The position numbers and the translations under genes are program-made. The notes under the pieces are model-generated. The model ran no database searches, had not been told where the DNA came from, and saw only the letters and a list, made by a program, of their open reading frames with translations. Positions 456-46,674 of a DNA stretch of 46,717 nucleotides are shown here, piece after piece. Position 1 is the first letter of the stretch, and each line of letters begins with the position of its first letter. This DNA is from Escherichia phage vB_EcoS-IME253: sequence record NC_047810.1, one strand, 5' to 3'.

Positions 456-640
456 TTGGCATCTGCGTAAAAACAAATGGCTTCTTTACACTTCTTGAGG
501 ATTATGAAATTAATTTCGATTCAAATGAAATAACAGTGTTAAGCGATGATGGGTGCTATTGGTTCCTTAGTTATCAAGGTGATGGTTATTACGGTTGCAG
601 AGATTCAGGCGGAAAAGAGGTTAGTTTCTTAGTCGAATAG
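434..640 (+). CDS. hypothetical small protein (68 aa)
   Basis: ORF whose TAG stop is the TAG of the ATAGCAC element at 637. Confidence 0.45.
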   Translation: MPGGFFMIGICVKTNGFFTLLEDYEINFDSNEITVLSDDGCYWFLSYQGDGYYGCRDSGGKEVSFLVE

Positions 641-680
641 CACTTTTTGTTAAAAATCAAATCCATGGATGGATTATATT
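637..680 (+). promoter_or_regulatory. palindrome-plus-hexamer element (copy 1)
   Basis: atagcactttttgttaaaa at 637-655; TATATT at 675-680 after 22-nt spacer; next ATG 711. Confidence 0.45.
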
Positions 681-710
681 AAACACATCAACAACGCAGA
701 GGATTGAGAG

Positions 711-836
711 ATGAAAATTGTAGACAGAGAGATGTTTGAGATCGCACAGATGTACGCAAATGATGCTGTAAAAACTGGCTCTGATTATTGCTGGATGTGC
801 GCTAAAGAATACCTGAAAATGGCCTACGGCTTATGA
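711..836 (+). CDS. hypothetical small protein (41 aa)
   Basis: ATG at 711 preceded by gaggattgagag; ends in ATGA overlap with the next ORF; below the ORF-track size cutoff. Confidence 0.35.
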   Translation: MKIVDREMFEIAQMYANDAVKTGSDYCWMCAKEYLKMAYGL

Positions 837-1075
837 TAGTTAAAACCGGACGCGCGGAAGTATGGGCGCACTGTGGGGAGGCTGGCATTCAGGATGATAT
901 TAAACAAATTTCTCGCTTCTTCGACATAAAAGATATAAGCGTAGTCTATGATGGTAAATTCTCATACGTTGATGAGCGCCCAAGAAAGTACGTAAGAGTT
1001 AAGCCAGGTGTAAGCATAGATGTTAACGAATTCCTGAAATCTCAGGGATGCAAATTTAAGATAACTAAGGCATAA
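833..1075 (+). CDS. hypothetical protein (80 aa)
   Basis: ORF translationally coupled to the upstream small ORF. Confidence 0.45.
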   Translation: MIVKTGRAEVWAHCGEAGIQDDIKQISRFFDIKDISVVYDGKFSYVDERPRKYVRVKPGVSIDVNEFLKSQGCKFKITKA

Positions 1076-1078
1076 ATT

Positions 1079-1330
1079 ATGTTGGGATTGGACTTTCAGC
1101 CAGAGCATTACGATTTAGTTCATGGTCAGAGTGGGGTAAAGTTTAGAGCTATACCTATTGCTGACTGGTTTCCTCCTGATTATGTGGATGTGAACGCAAA
1201 AACTAAAGACGGGAAGTGGGTTCAGATTTACTACTCCCCAGCATGCGGAAACCTTTGCATGACTGACCTTGATAAGAAATTAGCAATTAGTGCGGAAGTT
1301 ATCGACTACTGGTTGAAAGAAGTTGAATGA
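1079..1330 (+). CDS. hypothetical protein (83 aa)
   Basis: ORF in co-directional early block. Confidence 0.45.
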   Translation: MLGLDFQPEHYDLVHGQSGVKFRAIPIADWFPPDYVDVNAKTKDGKWVQIYYSPACGNLCMTDLDKKLAISAEVIDYWLKEVE

Positions 1331-1412
1331 AGAGCCTGATACTAGTAGCATTAGTCCCACTGTTTAGCTTTACTATCTTATACTTTATCGTAATGAATTA
1401 AGGAACTTATAA

Positions 1413-2549
1413 ATGGCAACTGCAAAAATTACCAACGAAGAACTGCGCGAAGAACTGGCAAATGGCATGACAAACAAGGCAATCGCAGAGAAGTACGGCA
1501 TGAACATTCGCAACGTTGAATTGCGTCGCAGTAAGCTGGCGAAGAGTGGAGAATTGCACGGAAACCCAGGCATCAAGAAGCTAGTTCCTGACGGTTATAT
1601 GGTTAAGGGTACGTCAACCATGATTGACGCTGATGGTAACGAGAAGATTAGATGGGTCAAAACCTCAATAGACAATGAGCGCCTTGAGGTTTTAATGGAG
1701 CAAGCTCGCGAGGCATTCTGCTCTGAGTTGCCAAAGGCCACTCCATCTGAATCACCAAATGTTAACTTTGATAATGACACACTTGCGATGTATCCAGTTT
1801 TTGATTTGCACATTGGGGCGATGGCCCACAAACATGAGTGTGGCGAAAACTATGATACAGCAACAGCAGAGAATGTTATGAATGGGTTCTTTGACTACGC
1901 TGTAGATAAGGCGCCAAACTCTAAGAATGCTGTATTGGTATTGGGTGGTGATTTCCTACATTACGATTCCCTAGAGGCTAAAACCCCGGCCTCAGGCCAT
2001 ATCTTAGACTCTGACAGTCGTTACGCTAAGATTGTTTATGTCGCAATCCGGTCAGTTCGTCGTGCGATCTCTCGAATGATGGAGAAGCACCAAGTTATTG
2101 ATATTAAAGTAATAAGTGGAAATCACGACGAAGCAGGGATGGTTTGGCTTCGCGCTGCTATTGCTGCATTTTATGAAGACGAGCCTCGCGTAAATGTTGA
2201 TGTTAGCCCAGCTGCAATGATGATGACAAGCTTTGGAACGACGCTTATTGGATACACTCATGGCCACCAAATGCGGAAAGCCGATACTCGACTAACTGTT
2301 ATGGCAACTGATTTTCGTAAGTTATTTGGTCAAAGTGAGTATGTTTACACACATAGTGGCCACTGGCATTCTCAGAAGATTACAGAAACAAACTTGGGAA
2401 TTGATGAGGTTCATGGGCAGCTGGGAAGTCCTGACGCGTACTCAGCAAATGGCGGCTGGCGCTCTCAACGTCAAGCGGCAGTTATTGTCTACCATAAAGA
2501 ATTCGGTGAAGTTGGCCGCTTCATTTGTCGCCCTAAAATGTTTAGCTAA
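1413..2549 (+). CDS. calcineurin-like metallophosphoesterase with N-terminal HTH-like segment
   Basis: Motifs DLHIG, GGDFLHYD, GNHDE, YTHGH in order typical of metallophosphatases; RBS aaggaa before ATG; TAATAG double stop. Confidence 0.6.
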   Translation: MATAKITNEELREELANGMTNKAIAEKYGMNIRNVELRRSKLAKSGELHGNPGIKKLVPDGYMVKGTSTMIDADGNEKIRWVKTSIDNERLEVLMEQAREAFCSELPKATPSESPNVNFDNDTLAMYPVFDLHIGAMAHKHECGENYDTATAENVMNGFFDYAVDKAPNSKNAVLVLGGDFLHYDSLEAKTPASGHILDSDSRYAKIVYVAIRSVRRAISRMMEKHQVIDIKVISGNHDEAGMVWLRAAIAAFYEDEPRVNVDVSPAAMMMTSFGTTLIGYTHGHQMRKADTRLTVMATDFRKLFGQSEYVYTHSGHWHSQKITETNLGIDEVHGQLGSPDAYSANGGWRSQRQAAVIVYHKEFGEVGRFICRPKMFS

Positions 2550-2593
2550 TAGCACTTTTTGCCTAACCCATGCCGTAGAAATGCGGCATAATT
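2549..2593 (+). promoter_or_regulatory. palindrome-plus-hexamer element (copy 2, degenerate)
   Basis: atagcactttttgcctaa after TAA stop; CATAAT 2588-2593; leader catcgaaacgag; next ATG 2634. Confidence 0.4.
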
Positions 2594-2633
2594 ACCACAT
2601 CGAAACGAGATGAACTAAGCGAGGAAACACAAG

Positions 2634-6326: not shown

Positions 6327-6676
6327 TTGTATTGCGCCTCAAATAGGTAGTCACCGCAAACTGTAACAAAGCCAACCTCTTCGTCACGATATAGCTGCCA
6401 GGCGCTACCCTCTTTATCGTAAATGTATCCAGCGCACTGTCCAAGCCCGGCATGGAGATCTACTTGATACCGCTTCCCTTCAGTAAAGTATTTTCTAATA
6501 GATGAGCGATGATTGACCTTTGTGCAATAAATTGTCTTGGTCTTAATATACTTGCCGCGCTCTTCCAGGTTAATCCATTTTCCATCTTTCTTGATTTGCT
6601 CTACACCATCTTTAATGCGAGCTTTGTATAATACGTTTTCGTTGCTGATCCAGTTTTTAGTAATTGTAGTAGTCAT
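6323..6676 (-). CDS. hypothetical protein (117 aa from ATG 6676)
   Basis: ORF track start at 6700 is a GTG; ATG at 6676 is preceded by caacgaagagag, like other genes here. Confidence 0.45.
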   Translation of the reverse strand: MTTTITKNWISNENVLYKARIKDGVEQIKKDGKWINLEERGKYIKTKTIYCTKVNHRSSIRKYFTEGKRYQVDLHAGLGQCAGYIYDKEGSAWQLYRDEEVGFVTVCGDYLFEAQYK

Positions 6677-6863
6677 TTTTTTACTCTCTTCGTTGTCCAC
6701 ATGAATTTGTTAGGTACTAATTTGCGCACGATGCGCACTACAATCTTATCAAACTTCTGAACTAAGCTGTAAATCTTCCCATTAAGTGATGCTCGGTACA
6801 CTGCCTCTTCCATTGCGTCGTAAAAGTTGTCGAACCTTTCTTATCTCCCATTTCGATGGAAAG

Positions 6864-6907
6864 ATAATACCGCATCCTTGCGGAAATGCTTTAGCAATTA
6901 GTGCTAT
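6864..6907 (-). promoter_or_regulatory. palindrome-plus-hexamer element (copy 3, minus orientation)
   Basis: rc atagcactaattgctaa at 6891-6907; rc TATTAT at 6864-6869 (22-nt spacer); rc catcgaaa leader 6851-6859. Confidence 0.45.
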
Positions 6908-7052
6908 TTCGTGCTTTTTCTATAGCCTTGAGCATAATTTCATGACTTTCTAGCAAGTCCTCGCGGAACCAGTCTCCGCAAGGCCAACCCTTACCGCTGT
7001 AAGCTGCGATGGTGCAAAGATCGTAATAGTTAATATCTGATGGCAGAAGCAT
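6891..7052 (-). CDS. hypothetical small protein (53 aa)
   Basis: Hand-translated minus-strand ORF; ATGA overlap with upstream gene; TAA stop lies inside the palindromic element. Confidence 0.3.
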   Translation of the reverse strand: MLLPSDINYYDLCTIAAYSGKGWPCGDWFREDLLESHEIMLKAIEKARNSTNC

Positions 7053-7301: not shown

Positions 7302-7478
7302 TCAAAATGGAATGCAGTGATTACAACCTTCACCACTACAACAGAAATCTTCATCCTCTGACTGGAAATGCCTGGCAAGATCTATGTCTAACTTTCCGCG
7401 CACCACAAGGTCGGTGTAATCCTCGTTAAGCCCAATCAGTGAGCATTCGTGACGCAGCTTATCTTTATCAATCTTCAT
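7302..7478 (-). CDS. small Cys-rich protein (58 aa; CC..C..C at C-terminus)
   Basis: Hand-translated minus-strand ORF; RBS ggggaaagga; first gene downstream of the reverse-oriented element at 7509-7553. Confidence 0.35.
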   Translation of the reverse strand: MKIDKDKLRHECSLIGLNEDYTDLVVRGKLDIDLARHFQSEDEDFCCSGEGCNHCIPF

Positions 7479-7508
7479 TCCTTTCCCCTCGTTGTTGATG
7501 ATGAGCTA

Positions 7509-7553
7509 ACTATAGCTTCATTACCTCAGTATGCCTTTAGCAAAAAGTGCTAT
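7509..7553 (-). promoter_or_regulatory. palindrome-plus-hexamer element (copy 4, minus orientation)
   Basis: rc atagcactttttgctaaa at 7536-7553; rc TATAGT at 7509-7514 (23-nt spacer); leader rc catcatcaacaacgagg. Confidence 0.45.
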
Positions 7554-8184: not shown

Positions 8185-8721
8185 ATGAATAAGGTAACTT
8201 TAGGTGATGTAATTCGTGAGATGGTCCGCCAGGCGATTAAGTCCGACAAGAAACTATGTGTAGTTCCAGTTCGAAAGATATTCAACATGGTCAACGGGTA
8301 TGATTATCCGGATGAAATCATCGACGAGGAAACTGGAGAGTTCAAAACGCCTGGTCGTGAAATCGCAGGCCTGAAAAGTTCATACATCTATAACACCGCC
8401 GCAAGAATGCAGGAGCTTCGCGATATTGATATGCACGTAAAGCATCGCTTTATCTGGCTGGCGTCAGGCGAGGAAACGGTAGCGCGCAAGGTTGATGGCG
8501 ATGGCGCGGACAAGAACCTTCTGATCCAGCTTGAGCCTGGTGCTCTTAAGCCGACAAAGCGTAAGACTGCAGATATTGAGAAAGAGGCAGCCACCATTGA
8601 AAGGTTTAAGTCACGACTACTCAAGATCGCGCCGAATATTATAGACCTGCAAGGCGAACAAAAAGAAGGCGCGCTTATTGCCCTGGCACGCTACTATGAA
8701 ATGATTAAGGAGGCTAACTGA
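8185..8721 (+). CDS. hypothetical protein (178 aa)
   Basis: First rightward gene after the AT-rich divergent region; RBS gagg. Confidence 0.5.
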   Translation: MNKVTLGDVIREMVRQAIKSDKKLCVVPVRKIFNMVNGYDYPDEIIDEETGEFKTPGREIAGLKSSYIYNTAARMQELRDIDMHVKHRFIWLASGEETVARKVDGDGADKNLLIQLEPGALKPTKRKTADIEKEAATIERFKSRLLKIAPNIIDLQGEQKEGALIALARYYEMIKEAN

Positions 8722-9245
8722 TGTTTAATTTAAACGAAGAGAAACTGACGGACGAGCAGATTATGAATATTGCTATCCAGGATGATCTGCCGCCACTGCG
8801 GGTTGCAATCAATGCTAACGGTTATCGTCATGTTCAGCACCTCTGGGGCCAGCCTGATGCATCGGAAGTCTACAGAGATGAAGCGCTGGGAGTTCTGATT
8901 AAGTTGATCAGGAAGATGGCAAGGAACGGAAAGGGAGTGGTGGGTGTCAAGTCTGTACACGAAGCTGCACGTAAGGTTAAGCCGTTCGAGGGTCGAAATG
9001 GAATCATGGCGCGCATTAAGGATGAGCTCATCCCCGCACTCGATAAGATGAATGTTACCTGTCTAATTGGAGATAAGGTTTATGTCCACTCGGCAATCAT
9101 TGATGAGTACTGGCAACCAAACTTCAAAACTTACGAAGGTGAGCACACTAGTAGACTACCATACCACTTGCTGTACAGTGAGGGTGAGGTGGAGATGGCC
9201 GTAGAGTTCTATCGGAAAGCTAAATCACTTCTGAACGGTAAATAG
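8721..9245 (+). CDS. mini-paralog of the 527-aa protein (174 aa; shared N- and C-terminal modules only)
   Basis: N-terminus MFNLNEEKL..LPPLRVAINANGYR and C-terminal NGKGVVG..EAARKVKPFE..CLIGDKVY match 4446..6029; TGATG coupling to the upstream gene. Confidence 0.55.
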   Translation: MFNLNEEKLTDEQIMNIAIQDDLPPLRVAINANGYRHVQHLWGQPDASEVYRDEALGVLIKLIRKMARNGKGVVGVKSVHEAARKVKPFEGRNGIMARIKDELIPALDKMNVTCLIGDKVYVHSAIIDEYWQPNFKTYEGEHTSRLPYHLLYSEGEVEMAVEFYRKAKSLLNGK

Positions 9246-9285
9246 CACGAATTGTTAAACCTTCCGCAAGGCCATTTGATATAGT
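9242..9285 (+). promoter_or_regulatory. palindrome-plus-hexamer element (copy 5)
   Basis: atagcacgaattgttaaa; TATAGT 9280-9285 (22-nt spacer); next ATG 9318. Confidence 0.45.
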
Positions 9286-9317
9286 GGCCTTATTGAAGCA
9301 AAGCAAGAGAGGATTGG

Positions 9318-9716: not shown

Positions 9717-9947
9717 ATGATTACAACCAACCTGTCAGAGAAAGACGCATCAATTCTCAAGTCAATGCTTATGACATTTAGTAATTCTCGCTCATCCGAA
9801 CAGGCTCGAGTCGTTAAAGAGACTGTAGCACAAATCAACAATCAGCAGTTCGACGTAAGTGACTTCGAATCATCACGCCAATACGAATCTCTAAGTATTC
9901 AGAATGCTGGCTACCTCACGAACTGGGATAAGGCGACTAACAAATGA
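9717..9947 (+). CDS. hypothetical protein (76 aa from ATG 9717)
   Basis: Internal ATG of the track ORF 9672..9947, directly after the stop of the upstream small ORF. Confidence 0.4.
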   Translation: MITTNLSEKDASILKSMLMTFSNSRSSEQARVVKETVAQINNQQFDVSDFESSRQYESLSIQNAGYLTNWDKATNK

Positions 9948-10081
9948 TTTACGTTCACACATACTACACAGGCAAGTTCAATAGCGTTAAGCATGTTCGC
10001 GTGCACGATAGCTACGATAGCGCAAAGGCGCAATGGCTGGTCCTTGGTGGTGACATTAATTCATATAAAATTGCCGAATAG
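9944..10081 (+). CDS. hypothetical small protein (45 aa)
   Basis: ATGA overlap; in-frame TAG stop is the TAG of the element at 10078. Confidence 0.3.
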   Translation: MIYVHTYYTGKFNSVKHVRVHDSYDSAKAQWLVLGGDINSYKIAE

Positions 10082-10121
10082 CATGAATTGCTAAAACAAC
10101 ATTGGGGTAATTTGATATAGT
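10078..10121 (+). promoter_or_regulatory. palindrome-plus-hexamer element (copy 6)
   Basis: atagcatgaattgctaaa; TATAGT 10116-10121; leader ccccatcgaaacgaa; next ATG 10152. Confidence 0.5.
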
Positions 10122-10151
10122 TACCCCATCGAAACGAACGAGGAAGCAGGA

Positions 10152-10591: not shown

Positions 10592-10717
10592 ATGGAAGTA
10601 CAAGAAAGCCCAGTAGAGTGGTGCAGGCGAATGCAGGACGAAGCTAAAACGGGCGAAGAGGCGATGGCTTACTACGAGCTGGCGAAAATGTGGATGGAGC
10701 GGGAGAAGAGACAATGA
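10592..10717 (+). CDS. hypothetical small protein (41 aa)
   Basis: ATG with RBS aaggtg; ATGA overlap with the next small ORF. Confidence 0.3.
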   Translation: MEVQESPVEWCRRMQDEAKTGEEAMAYYELAKMWMEREKRQ

Positions 10718-10851
10718 GCTTCACTGAATATGTTATCGCATGCGAGAGGTTGGTTTTCGATATGAAGACTTTCCACTGGTTCGTCATTAAGGATTTGATT
10801 AAGCCTTATAAGCAGGGCGTGACACCTGAGGCATTTATCAAGAGCTTCTAT
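10714..10851 (+). CDS. hypothetical small protein (45 aa)
   Basis: In-frame TAG stop is the TAG of the variant element at 10848. Confidence 0.3.
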
Positions 10852-10891
10852 AGCACTAAAAGCTAAACGCAGTCGCCACGGATGGCATATA
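10848..10891 (+). promoter_or_regulatory. palindrome-plus-hexamer element (copy 7, variant)
   Basis: atagcactaaaagctaaa; TATAAT 10886-10891 (22-nt spacer); next ATG 10924. Confidence 0.4.
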
Positions 10892-10923
10892 ATTACCCAA
10901 TCAACACAGCGAGAGATTGAGAA

Positions 10924-14470: not shown

Positions 14471-14501
14471 TACCTTACACAAACGAGAGGAGAAAAGACA
14501 A

Positions 14502-35425: not shown

Positions 35426-35426
35426 C

Positions 35427-35531
35427 TTAGAACCCTTTAAAGTTGCTAGCCAGCATCAGAAGCCATACGAAGAAACCAGTAGCTGCTACACCGAAGATTG
35501 CAGAGATTACGTTAGTAGTTAAGTTAGTCAT
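35427..35531 (-). CDS. small hydrophobic peptide (34 aa, single TMD)
   Basis: Hand-translated; RBS aaggaa; directly downstream of the reverse-oriented element and leader. Confidence 0.35.
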   Translation of the reverse strand: MTNLTTNVISAIFGVAATGFFVWLLMLASNFKGF

Positions 35532-35571
35532 TTTGTATTCCTTAGTAAGTGTGTTTCGTTTCGATGGAAAG

Positions 35572-35615
35572 ATAATACCGCATCCTTGCGATAAGTGTTT
35601 AGCAATTAGTGCTAT
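35572..35615 (-). promoter_or_regulatory. palindrome-plus-hexamer element (copy 11, minus orientation)
   Basis: rc atagcactaattgctaaa at 35598-35615; rc TATTAT 35572-35577; rc leader catcgaaacgaa; drives 35427..35531 and lipoprotein gene. Confidence 0.5.
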
Positions 35616-35884
35616 TAGTGAATATCCTCACAGCCAGGAATGGACTTAACATTGTAATGCCGATAAGCGAATATCAAGTTAAGAGCCTGCTCGACCGTGC
35701 ATTTAAGGGCGCCAGAGATAATAAATGAAGACTCAGTGATGTGATTTATTAACTCATTTCTGACAGGGTCGTCATCTGCTAGTAACTCTGCGCGCTTAAC
35801 AAAAAGAGCGTTGTTTACCAGGATTGTCACAACCTTTTCATTGAGCTCTTTCTTCGCTTTTGCAATCTCTTTCTCGTAGTTCAT
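35615..35884 (-). CDS. hypothetical protein (89 aa)
   Basis: ORF ending in TAATAG inside the reverse-oriented element. Confidence 0.4.
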   Translation of the reverse strand: MNYEKEIAKAKKELNEKVVTILVNNALFVKRAELLADDDPVRNELINHITESSFIISGALKCTVEQALNLIFAYRHYNVKSIPGCEDIH

Positions 35885-36026: not shown

Positions 36027-36716
36027 CTACTTATCTTTAAGTAGCAACTTGATATCAATTCCTAGATTATTCTCAATCAATCCAGTCAGTGCACCTACCT
36101 TTTCCTTAAGTGCGAAGCACTGTGTTTCATACTTGAATCTCAACTCCATCTCATCAGAGCGACTTGACCAGCACTGCCGAGCCTCGCACGCTAGCTCATC
36201 AATCTTCTTGTCAAGTTCCTTATCTGACAGGGTGATTTCAGTAATTCGCTGCTCAGCTACGATTCTCTGGATCAAGTGAGCATTCTGCGCTTGCAGGTAT
36301 CCATTCTTCATTCTTTCCTCTTTAAGTTCATCAATGCTTACCATCTGACTGATTACTTCCGCTTGCTTGTTGATGGTGCTTTGCATTTCTTTAAGCTTAG
36401 CAAGCACTGCGCGACGAACGAACTTTGATTCTCTCATCCCAATCAAAAGCATCTGTTCCATATTGAGCACTGGTGAGTTGATTGACTTTCTATAACCTCC
36501 TCTACCCTCACTCTTGATTACGAAACTTTCGTAGTCAAACTCAAACCCTTCAAGCTCATCCTCTATTCTCTCAACAAAGTCATTGTGTCGAACATTGGAC
36601 TCCCCAGCGATCAACCTCGCTGGGTTGATAACTTCATTTAAAAACTGATAACTATTCATTTTTACGTCTTCATTAAGTAATGCTAAGTTCATTTTCGTCT
36701 CTCTTTTGTTTTTCAT
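36027..36716 (-). CDS. putative regulatory protein (antirepressor-like N-terminal domain, coiled-coil C-terminus); start may be 36692
   Basis: First minus-strand gene downstream of reverse-oriented element 36797-36840; domain call is weak. Confidence 0.4.
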   Translation of the reverse strand: MKNKRETKMNLALLNEDVKMNSYQFLNEVINPARLIAGESNVRHNDFVERIEDELEGFEFDYESFVIKSEGRGGYRKSINSPVLNMEQMLLIGMRESKFVRRAVLAKLKEMQSTINKQAEVISQMVSIDELKEERMKNGYLQAQNAHLIQRIVAEQRITEITLSDKELDKKIDELACEARQCWSSRSDEMELRFKYETQCFALKEKVGALTGLIENNLGIDIKLLLKDK

Positions 36717-36796
36717 TCCTAAGATTTGAGGAGTTAACTAAGTTCTTTTCCTCAATTTGAGGAGGAGTTGACAGCACCATTGCCGCCACGCGCCTA

Positions 36797-36840
36797 AATA
36801 TACCTAAAGATAGCCAGTTGTCTTTAGCAAATCGTGCTAT
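36797..36840 (-). promoter_or_regulatory. palindrome-plus-hexamer element (copy 12, minus orientation)
   Basis: rc atagcacgatttgctaaa at 36823-36840; rc TATATT 36797-36802 (22-nt spacer). Confidence 0.45.
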
Positions 36841-37525: not shown

Positions 37526-38491
37526 ATGAGCTTTAAAGTTTTTACGCGAGAGGAGCTAAGCAACGAGGCTTACCACGCTGAAACTGAACACATCTCAGGT
37601 AGCTCGCTTGTCGAGATTATCCAGGGATCACCAGCCAAGTGGAAGTTTAAGCAGCGCAACAATGATAGCAAGGCGCTTAAGTTCGGCACGCTAAGCCACA
37701 CGATGATTTTAGAGCAAGATGTATTCGAAAAAGAATACCTTCGCGCAACAGACCTTGACTCGATTGAAGGCTTAATTACAAGTCAGTCTGGATTATCATC
37801 AGCACTTAAAAAAGTTGGTGTAGCTGGCACGTCAGGTAAGGGGTATAGCGAGCTTATAGAGATGATGTATCGATCTGGTGAGGATTGGCCCGTTGGATGG
37901 TTAATTGAGCAGCAGGAGAGCGCCCAGGCGCTTGCGGATGGTAAGGAGCTAGTTAGCGCAGTAGACTATGACAAGGTTGTAGCGATGCGTGAGGTCCTCT
38001 GCAACATTCCGGCGTATAATGCGATCGTGAACAGTAAGACGGCGCAGAAAGAGTTATCGATCTTCGGTGAGATTCTAGGAGTCGGCGTTAAGATTCGAAT
38101 TGACCACGTTGATGTTGTTGATGGAGCAGTTCGGATCACAGATTACAAAACGACAGCAGACGCAAGCCCGGAAGGATTCGGTAAGTCAGCATTCAACCAC
38201 GGATACCTTGCAAAAATGGCACTTCAGCGTGATCTGTTTGTGAAAGCATTCAACGAGAAGCGCAAGGTTGTTGTGGGGTTGCTGGCACAGGAGAAGGTGG
38301 AGCCATACTTACCAATGCTGTACACCCTAACTGACGAACAGCTTCGCATTGGTCGTCTCCAGTATCTTGAGGCACTTGCCACTTACAAGAAGTGCAAGGA
38401 GCTAGATATCTGGCCTGGGTACTCGAACGGCATAACAGAGCAAGAACTACTAGTCCCTGAGTGGGCTCTAAAGCAATACAAAGAAATCTAA
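37526..38491 (+). CDS. PD-(D/E)XK family exonuclease (recombination exonuclease)
   Basis: IRIDHVD...ITDYKT nuclease-type motif; strong RBS aaggggtg; upstream of annealing protein gene. Confidence 0.55.
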   Translation: MSFKVFTREELSNEAYHAETEHISGSSLVEIIQGSPAKWKFKQRNNDSKALKFGTLSHTMILEQDVFEKEYLRATDLDSIEGLITSQSGLSSALKKVGVAGTSGKGYSELIEMMYRSGEDWPVGWLIEQQESAQALADGKELVSAVDYDKVVAMREVLCNIPAYNAIVNSKTAQKELSIFGEILGVGVKIRIDHVDVVDGAVRITDYKTTADASPEGFGKSAFNHGYLAKMALQRDLFVKAFNEKRKVVVGLLAQEKVEPYLPMLYTLTDEQLRIGRLQYLEALATYKKCKELDIWPGYSNGITEQELLVPEWALKQYKEI

Positions 38492-38535
38492 ACAGCACGA
38501 ATTGCTAAAACAAAACGGGATGACTTAGGTATAGT
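38492..38535 (+). promoter_or_regulatory. palindrome-plus-hexamer element (copy 13, variant)
   Basis: acagcacgaattgctaaa after TAA of exonuclease gene; TATAGT 38530-38535; next ATG 38565. Confidence 0.45.
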
Positions 38536-38564
38536 TATCCAATCAACAACGAACGAGGTTAAAG

Positions 38565-39215
38565 ATGCAAATTTCAGAATTATGCAAATCAATTTTAAAA
38601 GCGCTTCACACTGCTAAATCGCTATTTGCGAAGGCTGAAAAGTCTAAGCAGAACTCTCACTTAAAGAATAAATACGCTACCTTAGAAGACGTTTTGGCGG
38701 CTGTTGAGCCTGGTTTATATGAGTGTGGTTTGGTGATGTTCCAGAGTGTGATTGATGACGAACAAACAAATCGCATGAAGGTCGAGACAAAGCTGTTTCA
38801 TGTTGAATCTGGAGAGTGGGTAAGCTTCTTAATGATAGTCCCAATCAGCAAGAATGATGCACAAGGTTACGGATCAGCTTTAACATACGCTCGTCGCTAC
38901 GGTATCACAGCTGCCTTGGGTCTTAGCCAGGCTGATGATGACGGAAATCTTGCAGCCAAAGGCGTTAAGGATTTCAAGCGAGAGCTAGAGAAATGCAATA
39001 CTCTTGATGAACTTCGTAACGTCTGGAAAGAGGCTAAGCAGTCACTTGATGCGGCTGGATGGAAGGTTTTTGAACCTCACATTATCGAGCGCAAGGCAGA
39101 GATTGAGGCAAATGCGATGACTGGCTTCAACCCAGCAACACCAAAGAAAGTTGCAGAAAAAAGTAGTCCTGAAGAAAAGATTAAAGTAGAATCACAACAA
39201 ATCGACACATTCTAA
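38565..39215 (+). CDS. single-strand annealing protein (Erf-like, putative)
   Basis: 216 aa, TYARRYGI-type motif, position between exonuclease and SSB. Confidence 0.45.
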   Translation: MQISELCKSILKALHTAKSLFAKAEKSKQNSHLKNKYATLEDVLAAVEPGLYECGLVMFQSVIDDEQTNRMKVETKLFHVESGEWVSFLMIVPISKNDAQGYGSALTYARRYGITAALGLSQADDDGNLAAKGVKDFKRELEKCNTLDELRNVWKEAKQSLDAAGWKVFEPHIIERKAEIEANAMTGFNPATPKKVAEKSSPEEKIKVESQQIDTF

Positions 39216-39710: not shown

Positions 39711-42614
39711 TTAAATCAATTTAACAGATCTTAACTGATTACCAGAAGTTGTAGATATTGTTGTTGAACTAACTAACGTCCCAGACAATGCAAACGAAAT
39801 AGCTCCAGTCGATGAGGTTCCAGTAGCAAACCTTTGAGGTGAATCGCTTATAACACTTATCTTATTTGCTGTAAAAGTATTAGTGCCAGAAAAACCAGTA
39901 GTTACAACCAAATCCTGATTGAGTCTAAATCCAAATCCAACAGTAACAGAGGTTGACTCTTTCACAGGAATGTTAAGCCCATTTAGACGCACACCTGAGA
40001 TATCAAAGAAATCACAAGAAGAAAGAAGCGCCATTCTTGAAATGCCTGTTGTTATTGGTAGCGTACTCTGAGACTGTCCATTGAAGTTACATACAAATCT
40101 TGTGTTAATGAAACTAATATCATGATCAACAGAGCCATCAACCGGAGAGGTCGTACCAGATGTTGACTTAACAATACCGCCAACAAATTTTATTGCCACA
40201 GGTCCATTTGGGTCTGAACCATAGTAAGCTCTAAGCCTTTCAACATTACAATTAACCATGTAATAGCTCCCCCTCTGGTTTGTCTCAAATATAGGGTATC
40301 TCGAGCTTCCGACAGGTGAAGAGAGATCATATATAGAAACGTTAGGGTTATGAAGACTGTTAGCACCCATGAAAACGATATTATTTGATAAAATCCCCTT
40401 TATACTTATGTTGGTAGTAAACCTTCCAGTCAATGAGCTTTCAGAATTTGTCATGTCCGAGAATGGCCCCTTAAACCTTGAAAAATCAATAGTAAGTCCC
40501 AAGCTAGCAGATGAAGGGAAAGCCGACATGTTAACATCTGATATTGAAACGTCAGAAGGGAAAAGCAGCGCACCATCTCTACTTGAGTAGAATAAATTAC
40601 CAGGATGAGAACTGTAGTTTCCTGACTTGAAGTTAAGGCCCTTAATCCTAACTGAGTTAAACAGAGTGCTCTTTATTGGTGAGCCAGCTACAGGTCCATT
40701 TCCTTCATAAGAAATTCCATTTATCAAACCCGTCCCGGTCAGGCTAGTACTTCTTGTGCCTGTAAAAGTAATGTTATCCATGTAAAGGTTTCCGTCAAAG
40801 AAACCTCCAGCGTCCGCCCTTGTTGTTATGATATTCCCATTCGTATATCTAGACGCATTAAATGCACTATCCCTTATATGCAAATCGCCAAGACCAGTAA
40901 CAACAACACCACGGGCACCGATATTGCAGTTTTCAATCTTGAGGTAGTTATGAAAAGGCATGTGAAAGTCAATTCTACTTAGATCACAATTTTCAAAAGT
41001 TACGTTTGCGCAGTTGTTACTACCATTTGCGCCCCATCCTTTACCGTTAACCCTTGCGTTCATAATCCTTACGTTCATTGATTCACCTATTGATAAGGCG
41101 TATGAGTAAAGCTCACCAGAAGAATCTCTTGCGTCTGCAACAGACTCGGCAAAAAGACCATCAACTGTGATATCATATGAGTTAGCTATTGCCAACCTTG
41201 TATCGCTAAACACTTGCGTTATCGGCTTGTTAATAAAGGAAATATCTTTTATTAACAACCTTGTAGAATTATTAACATAAACTATCTGATACCGTGTCGA
41301 AAGACTTTCATCTATAGTTAAACCCTTGATTTCCTGAGTTGTCTTGTTTATCTTCAAGGCTCTAACTGATGTAACATTATTTCCAAGATCATACTTCAGT
41401 GAGTTCTCCAGATAACCCCTATTGTAAACCCTATTGAGTTCAATTCTTTTCTGAACAGAATCCCTATATGTGTACATGTCCTGATTTGTATAAAAAACAA
41501 TAAAACAACCATCAAGGTCACGATTTTCAGATATAGAGTCGAACAAATTACTTCCAGCAGCTCTTGATTCATTAGACATGGAGTTAAAAGATGAAACAAC
41601 AGATGACGAAGCGTCATAAGTTGTAGGTTGCCCGTTGGTTATAGTTATCTGCCCGGTCCATGAGGATGATGGTTTTATAACAGAGCCTGTAAAATCAGCA
41701 CTCAATGAACCAATATCAATATAATCGGAACCAGAAACAAGAAAAACACCATCATTCTGCTTTATCTTTAGATTTTTGGATTTTGCGTAGTTTATCGCTC
41801 GATTTATACCTGAAATATCATTAGTAATACCATCACCAACACAACCAAAATCATAGAAACTAACATAACCTTTAGATCCTAGTTCAGACCACGAAGAATC
41901 ACCAATCCCACCAGAAGAATATGGTGTCGAGTTTTCCGGGACTGTCTTAGGTAGATCTCCCATCCATACGTATGACTTTGGCTTACCGGAGTCAAGCCAT
42001 ATCATTTGTTGATTTCTTGACTCTATTACACCTCCGGACTCAAATGATGAAATTAAGGCACCAGATAATGAAATTAAGGCACCAGATAATGATTCCGCAT
42101 AACCCCGTGCAGCTTGTTCTGATGACATTGCTAATCCAGCACTCGCTGCAGCAGAAGCCATATCACCTGCTACCTGGGCAGCATTCTGCGCAACCTGTGA
42201 TGACATGTTTACAACATCGCCATACTGATTGTTAACCTGTGTTACTTTAGATTCAAAATCATTAAAGTCAAAGTTGTTAAATGCATCAACTGCATCAGCA
42301 ACCTCAGTTTCACGTGACTGATAGTAACGAAGAGTCTCAGCAACATCTTGAGCTAATCCCTGAACGGTAATCCCATCATGAGCAAGAATAGCGTAACCAG
42401 TTCCAGCAGGAACAGTTTCAGAATTAGGGTTATAAACATTAATCTGCGTATCGCTGATGATCTCAGAGATGGTGTAAATTTTTACTGGCTCAGTTTTAAA
42501 TACAATGGTGGCACCTACGCGAATCAGTGTAAGCGGTGCTTTCCATGTTGTCCCGACACCAGTCACCTCGCCGTTTGCAGCTAATGATGCGGTTCCCAAG
42601 TCATAAATTGCCAT
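39711..42614 (-). CDS. tailspike / lateral tail fibre protein (beta-helix type, putative)
   Basis: About 970 aa, Ser/Thr/Asn/Gly-rich; N-terminal MAIYDLGTASLAANGEVTGVGTTW resembles conserved tail-fibre anchor domains; ATG 42614 inferred. Confidence 0.6.
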   Translation of the reverse strand: MAIYDLGTASLAANGEVTGVGTTWKAPLTLIRVGATIVFKTEPVKIYTISEIISDTQINVYNPNSETVPAGTGYAILAHDGITVQGLAQDVAETLRYYQSRETEVADAVDAFNNFDFNDFESKVTQVNNQYGDVVNMSSQVAQNAAQVAGDMASAAASAGLAMSSEQAARGYAESLSGALISLSGALISSFESGGVIESRNQQMIWLDSGKPKSYVWMGDLPKTVPENSTPYSSGGIGDSSWSELGSKGYVSFYDFGCVGDGITNDISGINRAINYAKSKNLKIKQNDGVFLVSGSDYIDIGSLSADFTGSVIKPSSSWTGQITITNGQPTTYDASSSVVSSFNSMSNESRAAGSNLFDSISENRDLDGCFIVFYTNQDMYTYRDSVQKRIELNRVYNRGYLENSLKYDLGNNVTSVRALKINKTTQEIKGLTIDESLSTRYQIVYVNNSTRLLIKDISFINKPITQVFSDTRLAIANSYDITVDGLFAESVADARDSSGELYSYALSIGESMNVRIMNARVNGKGWGANGSNNCANVTFENCDLSRIDFHMPFHNYLKIENCNIGARGVVVTGLGDLHIRDSAFNASRYTNGNIITTRADAGGFFDGNLYMDNITFTGTRSTSLTGTGLINGISYEGNGPVAGSPIKSTLFNSVRIKGLNFKSGNYSSHPGNLFYSSRDGALLFPSDVSISDVNMSAFPSSASLGLTIDFSRFKGPFSDMTNSESSLTGRFTTNISIKGILSNNIVFMGANSLHNPNVSIYDLSSPVGSSRYPIFETNQRGSYYMVNCNVERLRAYYGSDPNGPVAIKFVGGIVKSTSGTTSPVDGSVDHDISFINTRFVCNFNGQSQSTLPITTGISRMALLSSCDFFDISGVRLNGLNIPVKESTSVTVGFGFRLNQDLVVTTGFSGTNTFTANKISVISDSPQRFATGTSSTGAISFALSGTLVSSTTISTTSGNQLRSVKLI
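42047..42088 (-). repeat. perfect 21-bp tandem duplication inside tailspike gene
   Basis: atgaaattaaggcaccagata x2 on plus strand, encoding SLSGALI-SLSGALI in frame. Confidence 0.8.
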
Positions 42615-42637: not shown

Positions 42638-42655
42638 ATAGCACGAATTGCTAAG
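42638..42655 (+). promoter_or_regulatory. solo palindrome copy (no -10-like hexamer at expected spacing); candidate operator
   Basis: atagcacgaattgctaag about 30 bp upstream of the tailspike start codon (minus strand); expected hexamer position reads GGCATA. Confidence 0.35.
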
Positions 42656-42680
42656 TTGGATTGTAGCATCTTTCAGGCAT

Positions 42681-43625: not shown

Positions 43626-43683
43626 ATCAATCTATCTCTGAACAAATAAAAAAGGATGCACCGATTATGGCACATCCAATTCC

Positions 43684-44157
43684 TTACTCTTTAGCTTTTC
43701 GTGCTGCCTCATTAGCGGCCTTGATCTTTCTCCATGAACGACACTCTGGTTTGGTTGCTAACTCGGACTCAGTAACCACACGCAGCATGTGACGCTTCTT
43801 GCACCGTAATGTCAGCGGCTTTCCGTTGCCGTCGAATTGCAGGTCTGGTCGGCAGAATGTAGCGCGAAAACCTTCTCCATTTCGTTTGTAGTAGTTGTGC
43901 GATAGCTGAGCACCACGTGCAGAAATCATACCACGCTTAAACCATTCCTCTACAGCCTGTGGTGTTACCTTTAACTGCTTTGCGATATTCGCCTTTGTGC
44001 CGAAGAAATCAAGAACAATCTCCAGTCGCGCGCGCAACCCTGCCCTTACTTCATCTTTCAAAACGTAGTAACCTGAAGGTCGTTTTCGTTGTTTTTTGTC
44101 TTCAGTGCGGACAGTTCCGTTATTACCGTTGATTGTTCTCTTGTCGACTGTATTCAT
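43684..44157 (-). CDS. HTH DNA-binding protein (putative transcriptional regulator)
   Basis: Basic N-terminus and HTH-like IAKQLKVTPQAVEEWFKRG; sits in divergent region. Confidence 0.4.
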   Translation of the reverse strand: MNTVDKRTINGNNGTVRTEDKKQRKRPSGYYVLKDEVRAGLRARLEIVLDFFGTKANIAKQLKVTPQAVEEWFKRGMISARGAQLSHNYYKRNGEGFRATFCRPDLQFDGNGKPLTLRCKKRHMLRVVTESELATKPECRSWRKIKAANEAARKAKE

Positions 44158-44169
44158 TTCATTACCTCA

Positions 44170-44213
44170 ATAGCATTTTTTGTTAAAAGTCATTCTGATT
44201 TGATGGTAGTATT
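44170..44213 (+). promoter_or_regulatory. palindrome-plus-hexamer element (copy 15, variant)
   Basis: atagcattttttgttaaaa; TAGTAT 44207-44212 (21-nt spacer); upstream of helicase ATG 44259 in divergent region. Confidence 0.4.
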
Positions 44214-44258
44214 GTACTCAATTAAACGCTACAAGACAATTTTTATAGGAATTTAGAT

Positions 44259-46253
44259 ATGTTGCCTATCGAGAAGCTGGTTGCTAACTTTGATAAAGAA
44301 AGAATCAAACAGATTCAGAAGGATTACCAGTTTGGGGAGATAACCCCATACGAGTTCCAATGCGTAACATTTGATGCTATCGGAAAGGCTATTGGGAAGT
44401 ATGAGGCCCCATTTATAGCAGACCTTTCAGTTTCTGCTGGTAAGACAATCATTCTTGCCATGATTGGTAAGCGCATGGAGCAATTGGGATTGCCTTATAT
44501 GGTTCTTTCTCGCCAGTCAGAGATAATCAGCCAGAACTCAGAGGAGCTTCGTAATTTCGGCATCCGTAATAGCGTCTATTGCGCTGGCCTTAACGTTAAA
44601 TCGGTTTACTACCCAACCATAGTTGCCAGTGAGGGTACGGCAGCCAACGGCTTGTTTAAGGGGCTTGGTGACTATGTTCCTGCCGTTATAGCTATAGATG
44701 AGTGTCACATGGTGGACCACATGGATATTGTGGAAGCTGAAGAGAACGAGGAAACATTTGAGCAAATGAGCACAAAGAAAGGCGAGATGGTTTTTAAGGG
44801 TGGCGTAAACACAGGATTGCTTGGCACTGGTCGTGCGCAGTACACGCTAATTATCACCGAGATGAAACGTCGTTGTCGTGAGAGGTATGGTCGTGAGCTT
44901 CGTATATTCGGTCTAACTGGTAGCCCATACCGTAACAACGATCATATTGTCGTTAGCAACCCAAACATCCGCGGATTCTGGCGTAAGACGGTAATTCAGG
45001 TGCCAACCAATTACCTGGTTGATTTGGGCTTCGTGGTTCCAACTGTTTACGGTGAGGTTGGTGATCTGGGTTACGACCTTAGCGAATTTGCGCCAGACGG
45101 TAGTGATGGTGTTAAAGACTTTGGCAAGAAAGAAATGGATGCAATGCAGGAAAAGATTCATCAAAACCAGTCCATGACGCAAAAGATTATGCAATTTGCC
45201 GCAAAGTTCATGGAGACTCGCAACGCTGCGCTTGTGACATGTGCCGGTAAACGTCATTGTGAGGAGGCAGCAGCAGCGCTTCCTGAGGGTGTAACCTGGG
45301 CTATAGTAACTGACTCTACTGGTGAGAAAAAGCGTAGGGAGATTCTTTCTGACGCAGTTGAAGGTAAGTATAAATTCATATTTCAGATCGGTTGTCTCAC
45401 AACTGGCGTGAACGTCCCGCCATGGGATACATCAATCATTCTGCGCAAAGTTGGTAGTATCACGCTTCTTATTCAGCTTTTGGGGCGAGGCATGCGAATA
45501 CTTAAGAAGAAACATAAGGAAATGGGGATGGTCAAGGATGATCACGTGGTGCTAGACTTTGCTGGCACTCTTGATGACATGGCAGAATTATACTTTGATC
45601 CAATCATAGAGGAGGTGCAGGATCAGAAATTCAAGTCCTCTCGTAAAGTTGGGGATAAGTCAAGAGTATGTCAGGCCTGTGGATATAAAAACTCCCCACT
45701 TGCTCGTCGTTGCAATAACGTAATTGACGGAAAGCGTTGTGATAATTTTTTTACATTTCGCTTGTGTGAAGATATAGAGGACCCGCAGACAAAATCTATT
45801 ATTAAGAAAGGTTGTGGTGAGAAGAATGATATTGCCGCTAAAAACTGTCGGTGCTGCGGTGAGATGTTAATAGACCCGAATGCAAAGTTATCTGGGAAAA
45901 TGTATCGTAAAGGAGACTGGTTGCGAGTCTACGACTTTAAGATTGGATTAACAAAGAATCAATCAGGGATTGTTGCCTCATACGAGGTCATGGCTCATAG
46001 TGGTGATAGGTTCCGGGCCTATGAGACGTTTTTTCCAGAGTCAGACCATCGCGTTTGCTCTGTAAGATGGAAAGCATTTTGCTCAACTCACATAGAGAAC
46101 AGGACTGAGGCTTTTAGAATTGGCAGGTTGCGTAATGCTAAGATGATTATGACTAATGCTCACCTTTTTCGTGCGCCATTAAGGATTACGCACAGAAAAA
46201 ACCAGAAAGGTCAGGATATTATCGCCAATAAATCTTTTACTATGGAGGATTGA
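44259..46253 (+). CDS. SF2 DNA helicase with C-terminal zinc-ribbon repeats
   Basis: Walker A SAGKT and DECH box; C-terminal CxxC pairs (CQACGY, CRCCGEM). Confidence 0.7.
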   Translation: MLPIEKLVANFDKERIKQIQKDYQFGEITPYEFQCVTFDAIGKAIGKYEAPFIADLSVSAGKTIILAMIGKRMEQLGLPYMVLSRQSEIISQNSEELRNFGIRNSVYCAGLNVKSVYYPTIVASEGTAANGLFKGLGDYVPAVIAIDECHMVDHMDIVEAEENEETFEQMSTKKGEMVFKGGVNTGLLGTGRAQYTLIITEMKRRCRERYGRELRIFGLTGSPYRNNDHIVVSNPNIRGFWRKTVIQVPTNYLVDLGFVVPTVYGEVGDLGYDLSEFAPDGSDGVKDFGKKEMDAMQEKIHQNQSMTQKIMQFAAKFMETRNAALVTCAGKRHCEEAAAALPEGVTWAIVTDSTGEKKRREILSDAVEGKYKFIFQIGCLTTGVNVPPWDTSIILRKVGSITLLIQLLGRGMRILKKKHKEMGMVKDDHVVLDFAGTLDDMAELYFDPIIEEVQDQKFKSSRKVGDKSRVCQACGYKNSPLARRCNNVIDGKRCDNFFTFRLCEDIEDPQTKSIIKKGCGEKNDIAAKNCRCCGEMLIDPNAKLSGKMYRKGDWLRVYDFKIGLTKNQSGIVASYEVMAHSGDRFRAYETFFPESDHRVCSVRWKAFCSTHIENRTEAFRIGRLRNAKMIMTNAHLFRAPLRITHRKNQKGQDIIANKSFTMED

Positions 46254-46254
46254 T

Positions 46255-46674
46255 ATGAATATTACAGACAAAGTTGATTACATTGAGTTTTACCCTGGCC
46301 CGGTTAAGTCATGCCCTAAAGAGGATGATGAACAAATCTTTTGCTCTGATTGGGTTAAGTATAACTACCCAGAGATGGTATTTTTCCACTGCGTGAATGA
46401 GGGTAAGAAAACCATTGGTCAAGCAAGAAAAGATCAGGCTAAGGGTCTCCTTAAGGGAGTGTCAGACTGTATGTTTCTTATACCTGAATCTATCCGAGGC
46501 AAATACCCTTTCGGAGCTATAGAGCTAAAGAGAGCAGGAAAAACGCAGGCAAGCCCAGTCAGTGAGGAGCAGAAAGCTTTCCTTAAAAGCGTAATGGAAT
46601 CAGGTGGTTTCTCCGCAGTCGCCTACGGCAGGGAAGGGTTCCTTGCAGCATTCAAAGAAATGATTTCAAAATAG
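46255..46674 (+). CDS. VRR-NUC domain nuclease
   Basis: D...ELK...Q..F pattern and size (139 aa) typical of VRR-NUC; stop is TAG of the element at 46671. Confidence 0.55.
   Translation: MNITDKVDYIEFYPGPVKSCPKEDDEQIFCSDWVKYNYPEMVFFHCVNEGKKTIGQARKDQAKGLLKGVSDCMFLIPESIRGKYPFGAIELKRAGKTQASPVSEEQKAFLKSVMESGGFSAVAYGREGFLAAFKEMISK

Follow-up and report, generated by a model that had tools for sequence, protein, structure and literature searches.

Genes of a T1-like phage end inside a repeated intergenic element that is probably a composite promoter unit

What does a short sequence do when it recurs throughout a phage genome and gene after gene ends inside it? In the genome of Escherichia phage vB_EcoS-IME253 (NC_047810.1), analyzed here as one stretch of 46,717 nucleotides (the window), the heptamer ATAGCAC recurs between genes, and the upstream reading frame often stops within it or flush against it. 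An earlier note, made from the sequence by a reader who did not identify the element as a published promoter-like repeat, had concluded that stop codons are built into the element, and that it is a precise cassette boundary, as would be expected if it mediates modular gene exchange or tightly couples the termination of one unit to the initiation of the next. The observation was confirmed, and it can be reproduced throughout the phage family. With a probability of about 0.7, we interpret the element as a family-specific composite promoter cassette of T1-like phages (Drexlerviridae), its promoter activity being predicted.

Along most of its length the window shares 85 to 94% identity with Rtp, ZL19, phiA2-1, BEK1-1, and numerous further Rtp-like coliphages, and by this resemblance the phage is an Rtp-like T1-type siphovirus (Drexlerviridae, Braunvirinae). 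Comparison with ZL19 joins the last 47 bases (46671-46717) and the first 33 bases into one continuous intergenic unit. Because the two ends complete a copy of the element (copy 16, Table 1), we take the window to be a complete circularly permuted genome opened within an intergenic promoter unit. Reading frames were recomputed, and the gene list was curated by hand with the annotations of relatives as a guide. Position 1 denotes the A of ATAGCAC throughout. Copies were aligned, and stop codons clustered by junction, in eight genomes: the window, Rtp, phiA2-1, ZL19, BEK1-1, JeanPiccard, SU57, and T1.

The heptamer is found 15 times in the window against 6.6 expected, a count reached in 1 of 100 shuffles. 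Thirteen of these belong to a longer element, and the remaining two, at 553 and 34881 on the minus strand, are chance heptamers within genes. Three additional copies with variant heptamers (ATAGCAT at 10078 and 44170, ACAGCAC at 38492) bring the number to 16, all sharing the core aATAGCAC-nnn-TTGCTAAA within a unit of about 75 nt (Table 1). Every copy scores at least 23.4 bits with a 24-column matrix, whereas the top score over 20 shuffled windows was 13.0 bits. Read in order, the unit consists of the core, a 22-nt spacer that usually contains a hairpin, a TATAnT -10 box, a short A/C-rich leader (CATCGAAACGA), a Shine-Dalgarno (SD) sequence, and an ATG. Fifteen of the 16 copies face a downstream gene, whose start codon is mostly 72 to 90 nt from position 1 (124 nt at copy 12), and co-directional junctions carrying the element measure 57 to 87 nt, with a mode of 70 to 73. 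A gap-free alignment of 125 unique copies from the eight genomes shows near-maximal information at positions -1 to 18 and little at 19 to 33, followed by peaks at G37 (70%), T39-A40-T41-A42-n-T44, A51, and A55 to A57. Every copy has 22 nt between TTGCTA and the -10 box, and nowhere in the alignment is a hexamer conserved 16 to 18 nt from that box.

The same consensus and layout recur in the seven relatives and in a Klebsiella Webervirus (KW1), with about 24 copies in T1 and about 15 in the Webervirus. Across a scan of viral contigs, matches in multiple copies were confined to contigs of 42 to 53 kb, and the motif was unchanged in every subfamily sampled, in coliphages and Klebsiella phages alike. 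The element is already known: the window copies belong to the T1-type repeat family described in a re-annotation of phage TLS as a 21-nt direct repeat, aaATAGCACnnnTTGnTAAAA, whose 21 copies follow the direction of transcription and lie about 76 nt ahead of start codons; T1, Rtp, and Rogue1 have it too (PMC11447400). The section of that paper on the repeat leaves its function open among a stoperator, an enhancer site, and an UP element, and the paper gives only three canonical promoters for TLS. The copies in the window have the same sequence, orientation, intergenic position, and distance to the start codon as the TLS repeat, and the multiple oriented copies again lie in a T1-like phage. The information peaks at -1 to 7 and 11 to 18 fit the published consensus, which is most conserved at ATAGCAC and TAAAA. 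Absent from that section of the paper are the overlap with stop codons, the -10 box at 22 nt, the hairpin registers, the coincidence with breakpoints, and the conserved copies in a regulator leader and at a tail-fiber promoter. No transcript map of a T1-like phage came up in literature searches; papers on Rogue1, AHP24, and IMM-001 give predicted promoters only, and a search with the sequence string returned only unrelated primer lists.

We favor a promoter component because the motif stands at a fixed, gap-free distance from both the -10 box and the next start codon. Transcription would start at the A of CATCGAAACGA, that is, at A51. With this predicted start, the motif spans about -50 to -33, its dyad TAGCA-N5-TGCTA is centered near -42, and the 22-nt hairpin spacer leads to a -10 box of the sigma-70 type. 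The motif would then recruit host RNA polymerase through a bound factor, much like a class II activator site near -42. Sites of this kind include those of CRP and FNR (class II, -41.5), lambda CI at OR2 for PRM, and phage Mu Mor and C (near -43.5). The resemblance to such activator-dependent promoters extends to a good -10 box without a -35 box, a partial dyad about 42 bp upstream of the predicted start, and a small phage helix-turn-helix (HTH) protein encoded next to one copy of the site. The T1-type dyad differs in being only 5 bp long, asymmetrically conserved, and strictly directional, and its role as a site is predicted.

Several known signals were compared with the copies and rejected. 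As a -35 hexamer, TTGCTA is 22 nt from the only conserved -10 box in every copy, with no alternative -10 box 16 to 18 nt downstream; for sigma-70, the optimum spacing is 17 nt and the observed range about 15 to 21. The sigma-54 consensus, TGGCAC-N5-TTGCW, bears a superficial likeness to TAGCAC...TTGCTA, but all copies read TAGCAC-N3-TTGC, with N3 in place of N5 and AG in place of the near-invariant GG, and have a sigma-70-type -10 box at a fixed distance. Invariant G4, C5, A6, and G13 in a motif that is not an A/T tract do not suit an UP element, and sigma-32, MotA-box, and lambda CII-type readings have the wrong spacing or base identity for the position-specific conservation. The stem of a possible RNA hairpin, TAGCA/TGCUA, that would hold the stop codon is invariant rather than covarying. 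Neither this hairpin nor the element as a whole matched an Rfam family in a scan of the window, where the sole match is a tRNA-Arg (anticodon TCT, 11634-11711, +) also present in related phages. Canonical -35/-10 sites are not enriched in the window (27 versus 30.4 and 27.1 expected). The better canonical sigma-70 sites, at 7887-7915 (-), 8118-8146 (+), 11987-12015 (+), and 44211-44239 (-), are candidate factor-independent early promoters.

Could host RNA polymerase read the unit alone, with the motif as an UP-like site contacted by the C-terminal domain of the alpha subunit or by sigma region 4? The UP-element idea was itself raised by the TLS authors in their account of the repeat (PMC11447400). 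An identical motif in coliphages and Klebsiella phages would be expected for a conserved host reader, and copies precede genes of all functional classes, presumably including early small genes. Moreover, the second half of the motif begins with TTG, and many copies have a G at -14 relative to the predicted start, so that an extended -10 could suffice. However, the distance from TTGCTA to the -10 box falls outside the sigma-70 range, the invariant G and C positions do not form an A/T tract, and a reversed copy at the tail-fiber gene and a copy in a regulator leader, both kept in T1, look like operators. We consider polymerase acting alone rather unlikely.

Operator-like copies would also suit a roadblock, in which a bound phage protein stops or dampens elongation in the way that the mycobacteriophage L5 repressor acts at its stoperators, an analogy drawn in the TLS paper's section on the repeat (PMC11447400). 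Like stoperators, the copies are many, short, asymmetric, and intergenic and are oriented with transcription, and two of them lie downstream of promoters. L5 stoperators, however, are repressor sites of a temperate phage and are not tied by a fixed distance to a -10 box or start codon. In nearly all copies of the T1-type element, a -10 box at 22 nt and a start codon about 75 nt downstream would be needless for a roadblock. These phages are virulent, a lysogenic repressor is not known from them, the annotations of the relatives include neither an integrase nor a repressor module, and several copies head divergent regions, where there is nothing upstream to block. The fixed distances disfavor a pure roadblock site, which we judge highly improbable.

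The promoter reading has to accommodate the spacer as well, where stem-loops recur. Positions 19 to 56 have a mean folding energy of -7.9 kcal/mol, compared with -4.1 kcal/mol for shuffles (Wilcoxon p = 1e-13), and stems of at least 5 bp favor two registers, i+j = 63 (25 versus 3.9 expected) and i+j = 77 (29 versus 6.3). Stems of the first register lie just 5' of the -10 box and have an nGGA loop (e.g., GCCAcggaTGGC, CCGCAaggaTGCGG), while those of the second enclose the -10 box (e.g., GGGGTAA...TTACCCC, AAGGCCA...TGGCCTT). Paralogous copies keep this complementarity with differing sequences, and two hairpins in the window scored terminator-like. In the T1 record, hairpins at 38973..39001, 39998..40024, and 41980..42007 are annotated as rho-independent terminators; they fall in units starting at 38953, 39976, and 41956 and overlap or abut the -10 box. 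These annotated terminators may be promoter-associated stem-loops, or both. The unit thus has the makings of a composite of promoter and stem-loop.

Why, then, do genes end in a promoter? All 11 copies behind a co-directional gene carry its stop between -3 and +17: five on the motif TAG (positions 2-4), three as TAATAG, two on the TAA of TTGCTAA (15-17), and one as a flush TAA. No gene abuts the five copies that remain, of which three are in divergent regions, one comes after a terminator, and one is reversed at the start of the tail-fiber gene. The pattern is seen at orthologous junctions in the seven other Drexlerviridae genomes. Counted per copy in the window and six relatives, there are 38 stops on TAG(2), 15 on TAATAG, 13 on flush TAA, and 19 on TAA(15); with T1 added, 68 junction clusters give 21, 6, 10, and 7. 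The TAG frame is used by 8 of the 11 window genes (binomial p = 0.009), the frame counts over the 68 clusters are 31:8:12 (p = 1.4e-4), and motif TAGs account for five of the nine TAG stops in the genome. Of the six genes that the earlier note had ending on the TAG of ATAGCAC, five do end on the motif TAG (at copies 1, 5, 6, 8, and 16), although the heptamer at copy 6 is ATAGCAT. The sixth, given as 10714..10851, is not in the TAG frame and runs 15 nt further, to the second-half TAA at 10866. The TAATAG ends assigned to the genes before copies 2, 10, and 11 hold on recomputed frames, as does the stop of 6891..7052 (-) on the TAA of TTGCTAA, a position that 10714..10866 shares. The flush TAA of 37526..38491 before ACAGCAC had been overlooked.

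The same data speak against stops built into the element by design. In 37 unique copies without an upstream gene, the TAG is retained in 36 and the TAA(15-17) in 35, and among the 125 copies positions 1-7 and 11-18 are equally conserved throughout. Tight packing is genome-wide: 32 of 55 element-free co-directional junctions overlap or leave at most 15 nt, typically as ATGA overlaps. At the large terminase (TerL) gene, JeanPiccard and BEK1-1 lack the following unit and gene, yet an ATAGC remnant supplies the TerL stop; phiA2-1 has a TAA at the same codon. Since the triplets are kept without an upstream gene, since zero slack is the norm in this genome, and since a remnant still serves TerL, the stops are, on this sequence comparison, borrowed rather than kept for stopping, and the TAG is conserved for motif function. 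The overlap is best explained as mostly ordinary genome compaction against a stop-rich, constrained motif edge: genes would end within the motif because the genome is packed without slack, the upstream coding sequence being trimmed or extended until it reaches the first constrained base of the next unit. With its TAG at 2-4 and its TAA at 15-17, this 5' edge would offer stops in two frames, and a common preceding TAA would cover the third. A gene in the TAG frame would stop at once, one in the TAA(15) frame would gain five fixed codons, and without that preceding TAA a gene in the third frame would run on across the promoter. Compaction accommodates the excess of the TAG frame if small C-terminal changes of frame are tolerated.

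An alternative is that the stop was selected where it is, so that the ribosome is released before the hairpin, which can then terminate or attenuate transcription, thereby coupling stop, transcript end, and re-initiation. In its favor, the abutting genes all stop ahead of hairpins that begin near position 24 to 27, the earliest-stopping frame is the one in excess, and junctions are flush more often with the element (11 of 12) than without it (32 of 55; p = 0.04). Furthermore, the i+j = 63 hairpins are followed by a T-rich -10 box, and both the terminator-like scores and the T1 annotations point the same way. However, the triplets are equally conserved where no gene precedes them, packing is tight everywhere, and 19 copies (seven clusters) stop only at 15-17, about 7 to 12 nt before the hairpin. 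Behind the i+j = 77 hairpins comes ATCGAAACGA; since this is no U-tract, these hairpins do not qualify as intrinsic terminators. A selected stop is, in our estimate, unlikely. Of the proposed coupling of termination to initiation, the significant hairpin over or before the -10 box still fits; the stops as a designed feature are not supported. Still less plausible, to the point of being negligible, is that chance or open reading frame (ORF) calling created the pattern, with mechanical ORFs caught by an A/T-rich motif that provides stops in two of three frames. Several upstream ORFs are indeed short (45 to 62 aa) and unverified, but the pattern holds for large and conserved genes (those for TerL, the tape measure protein, exonuclease VIII, VRR-NUC, and Rtp61/T1 gp16, the last a DNA repair exonuclease homolog of 378 aa), it is repeated at the orthologous junctions of the seven other genomes, and it has a frame bias. 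The large genes in effect refute such an artefact.

We then considered the element as a boundary of exchanged cassettes. BLAST of the window against six relatives gave 102 distinct similarity breakpoints, of which 9 lie within 5 nt of the 21-nt motif (1.1 expected; p = 1.6e-6) and 19 within the 85-nt unit (3.4 expected), so that breakpoints do coincide with the element, as the earlier note had asked to be checked. A breakpoint occurs at 12 of 15 element-bearing junctions and 27 of 60 others (p = 0.02). Cassettes at 26460-27000, 14432-14862, and 22448-22773 begin within about 5 nt of position 1 (2 in, 5 in, and exactly at 1, respectively). The first, an HNH cassette of 541 nt, begins at the TAA/TAGCAC boundary, and a 30-nt spacer takes its place in Rtp, ZL19, BEK1-1, and SU57. 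In the second, the unit and gene 14502..14858 form an indel cassette that three relatives lack, and the junction shows AGC microhomology; in the third, the unit and gene 22525..22773 are missing from SU57, the left breakpoint falling exactly on motif position 1. Window copies 11 and 12 flank a cassette, in place of which Rtp has a single element whose left flank is like copy 12 and whose downstream part is like copy 11, a chimera of the kind left by exchange between direct copies on either side of a cassette. Window positions 9242-9300 and T1 positions 3535-3593 are 98.3% identical over 59 nt, including motif, hairpin, and -10 box, whereas alignable DNA of the two phages averages 71% and the flanking genes are unrelated on both sides; either the unit itself was transferred from one lineage to another, or very strong constraint acts on all of it. 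At 9249/9261, immediately behind the motif, homology to three relatives ends. Of the 15 HNH genes annotated in the eight genomes, nine come with a copy of the element, and element plus HNH gene thus resemble a mobile cassette that is fitted precisely into the space from one gene's stop codon to the start codon that follows.

As a self-contained, repeated expression module with 16 to 24 copies per genome, the unit would form a natural left edge of gained and lost cassettes, those of HNH homing endonucleases included, and the repeats may offer a patch of homology for cassette exchange or deletion. The nearest functional analogues, by layout, are the PeSLs (promoter-early stem-loops) of T4-type phages (PMC2839356, PMC4122927). 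They have the same order of upstream stop at the 5' edge, promoter, stem-loop, SD, and start, with the stem-loop between the promoter boxes or over the -10 box. They too are repeated many times, flank small genes of unknown function, and contain indel ends that yield chimeric units. They differ in having consensus sigma-70 -35 and -10 boxes and an A/T-rich upstream region, where the T1-type unit has a G/C-containing 21-nt motif and no usable -35 box; the element therefore falls outside the -35/-10 definition of a PeSL promoter. Family and sequence are unrelated, and the promoter, terminator, and mini-circle activities of PeSLs are demonstrated, whereas the T1-type element is known here from its sequence. 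The morons of lambdoid phages, which are autonomous units of promoter, gene, and terminator lying between other genes, are alike in placing a promoter and gene exactly between stop and start, as in the HNH cassette and at 14502..14858. Morons have unrelated promoters and are usually expressed from a prophage, whereas here a single family-specific motif stands at the head of all units in a virulent phage, those of core genes too.

Taken further, the likeness to PeSLs would make recombination the primary role, with direct repeats serving as exchange sites for Erf and exonuclease VIII and the inside stops protecting the upstream gene. PeSLs of the same layout act in this way in T4-type phages (PMC2839356, PMC4122927), and the enriched breakpoints, the Rtp chimera, the loss of homology right after the motif, the 59-nt unit between unrelated genes, and the near-identical spacers of copies 3 and 11 at distant loci all agree with it. 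The rigid spacing to the -10 box and start codon, on the other hand, bespeaks an expression signal first, and a fully conserved core of about 19 to 21 nt is short for efficient homologous exchange. The TerL junction shows AGC microhomology, homing explains the HNH cassette, and element junctions, being predicted borders of transcription units, tolerate insertions anyway. We find a recombination module doubtful. The idea of a precise cassette boundary is partly supported, with the motif a putative cause of exchange: flush placement, breakpoints, cassettes, and the Rtp chimera agree with it, but the TerL microhomology junction does not.

If the unit is an activator-dependent promoter, which protein might bind it? 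One candidate is encoded beside copy 15: a conserved regulator-like gene (Table 1) whose product may be the motif-binding protein. Homologs occur in 823 phage records, those listed being all from T1-like phages of enterobacteria. In Pfam, the protein matches P22_Cro weakly and under the curated cut-off. In a confident AlphaFold model (mean pLDDT 86.6), the closest counterparts of the helical core are the all-alpha Cro proteins of Xfaso 1 and N15 (target-normalized TM-score 0.72, weak E-value of 0.04), which points to a Cro-like all-alpha HTH core. Residues 1 to 45 form an almost invariant basic arm, predicted to be disordered (DKRTxNGNNGTxRxxDxxxRKRP...EVxAGLxAR), that is better conserved than the HTH recognition helix. 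The motif starts 12 to 13 nt from the regulator start codon on the opposite strand in the window (13 nt), Rtp, T1, and KW1, and its presence in the regulator leader, behind the regulator's own canonical promoter, suggests autoregulation. Copy 14 lies at about +1 to +20 downstream of the tail-fiber -10 box (TGcTACAAT in the window; TAAAAT in T1, 34902-34922), and this reversed copy, whose geometry is kept between subfamilies, looks like an operator. Together, these positions suggest one protein site that activates at -42 and represses downstream of a start. In its fullest form, the proposal is that the motif is the operator of the Cro-like protein, which, produced from a canonical promoter of its own, would activate 14 to 20 promoters per genome that lack a -35 box and repress its own gene and the tail-fiber gene (at about +1 to +35), while the units double as recombination modules. 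We regard this as possible at less than even odds. If true, a single-factor transcription program would be common to more than 800 sequenced Drexlerviridae, with PeSL-like modules moving genes and the upstream stop lying inside the shared sequence.

Several points weigh against parts of this interpretation. The inverted repeat, TAGCA/TGCTA, is just 5 bp long, and C14, the mirror of invariant G4, is the least conserved base of the second half (65%), which makes dimer-type recognition uncertain. The predicted recognition helix varies among homologs whereas the motif is invariant across the family, so direct read-out by the HTH fits poorly, leaving a host factor or the N-terminal arm. Conservation of the motif itself partly draws BLAST breakpoints, and the TerL cassette junction is a microhomology deletion rather than a motif-motif exchange. 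Finally, pure compaction with frames held fixed would not predict the TAG excess of 31:8:12.

T1-like phages often contaminate laboratories and fermentations and are considered for phage therapy, yet published annotations list just a few canonical promoters for them. A predicted promoter unit of fixed geometry gives a ready map of transcription units for this genome and its relatives. It also corrects annotation, since gene ends lie inside the motif and T1 terminator hairpins overlap -10 boxes, and it accounts for the entry and exit points of accessory genes and homing endonucleases. For engineering, it marks safe insertion sites and a portable expression cassette. The stop-codon overlap, in turn, mainly illustrates extreme genome compaction.

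Table 1. Copies of the element in the window, with the genes and regions discussed alongside them
Feature	Position	Strand	Remarks
Copy 1	637..710	+	Motif 637-657; -10 TATATT 675-680; leader and SD to ATG 711
Copy 1 stop	TAG 638-640	+	Ends gene 452..640 (also listed as 434..640)
Copy 2	2549..2633	+	Variant second half TTGCCTAA; hairpin ATGCCG...CGGCAT extends into -10
Copy 2 stop	TAA 2547-2549	+	Gene 1413..2549; overlaps position 1, giving TAATAG
Copy 3	6838..6907	-	Hairpin CCGCAaggaTGCGG just 5' of -10 TATTAT; terminator-like score
Copy 3 stop	TAA 6891-6893 of TTGCTAA	-	Ends gene 6891..7052 (-)
Copy 4	7479..7553	-	Head of leftward arm; no abutting upstream gene; precedes 7302..7478 (-) and is predicted to drive it
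Copy 5	9242..9317	+	TAG 9243-9245 ends 8721..9245; hairpin AAGGCCA...TGGCCTT encloses -10
Copy 6	10078..10151	+	ATAGCAT; TAG 10079-10081 ends 9944..10081; hairpin GGGGTAA...TTACCCC encloses -10
Copy 7	10850..10923	+	Second half AAGCTAAA; TAA 10864-10866 ends 10714..10866
Copy 8	14427..14501	+	TAG 14428-14430 ends large terminase gene 12865..14430 (TerL, 521 aa)
Copy 9	22448..22524	+	After intrinsic terminator of major tail gene; no gene abuts
Copy 10	26458..26529	+	TAA of tape measure gene 23483..26458 (991 aa) overlaps position 1, giving TAATAG
HNH homing endonuclease gene	26530..27000	+	Copy 10 is its predicted promoter unit
Copy 11	35530..35615	-	TAA of 35615..35884 (-) overlaps position 1, giving TAATAG; hairpin and -10 match copy 3
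Copy 12	36717..36840	-	Divergent region, no abutting gene; upstream of 36027..36716 (-)
Copy 13	38492..38564	+	ACAGCAC; flush TAA of exonuclease VIII gene 37526..38491 (321 aa)
Copy 13 downstream gene	38565..39215	+	Erf-like gene, predicted to be driven by copy 13
Copy 14	42638..42658	+	Motif alone; reversed relative to tail-fiber gene 39711..42614 (-)
Copy 15	44170..44258	+	ATAGCAT; divergent regulator-helicase region; predicted to drive helicase 44259..46253
Copy 16	46671..46717, continuing 1..33	+	TAG 46672-46674 ends VRR-NUC gene 46255..46674 (139 aa)
Copy 16 remainder	1..33	+	Discriminator, leader, and SD for gene 34..234, ATG at 34
Regulator gene	43684..44157	-	Homolog of Rtp52 and T1 gp23; one conserved regulator-like gene
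Canonical promoter of regulator	44211..44239	-	Predicted; sigma-70-like, TTGTCT-17-TACAAT; transcript would cross copy 15
Regulator-helicase divergent region	Window 44158-44258; KW1 24322-24428		Conserved motif geometry
HNH genes of relatives	Rtp 6388-6864, 21464-21979; BEK1-1 34780-35265, 40745-41269
HNH genes of relatives	JeanPiccard 576-1052, 13303-13779; T1 42028-42510

Copies 3 and 11, which lie 29 kb apart, have a near-identical spacer, hairpin, and -10 box (cgcaaggatgcggtattatctttccatcgaaa) at 6870-6883 (-) and 35576-35593 (-), a likeness that suggests duplication or gene conversion between copies in one genome. Downstream of copy 3 (about 6835-6840, -), where the start in relatives is ATG TTC GAC AAC, the ATG reads AGG and is preceded by an in-frame stop. 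Unless this reflects a sequencing error or a non-canonical start, the gene that follows can only begin at an internal Met (6673..6813, 46 aa). After copy 11, at 35520-35530 (-), no ORF of at least 40 aa begins in the window; the sequence there, ATGACTAAC..., corresponds to the beginning of rtp45, a lipoprotein gene of Rtp. Beside it, 33930-35516 differs from Rtp, and the region of copy 11 looks like a promoter with a gene stub left next to replaced DNA.

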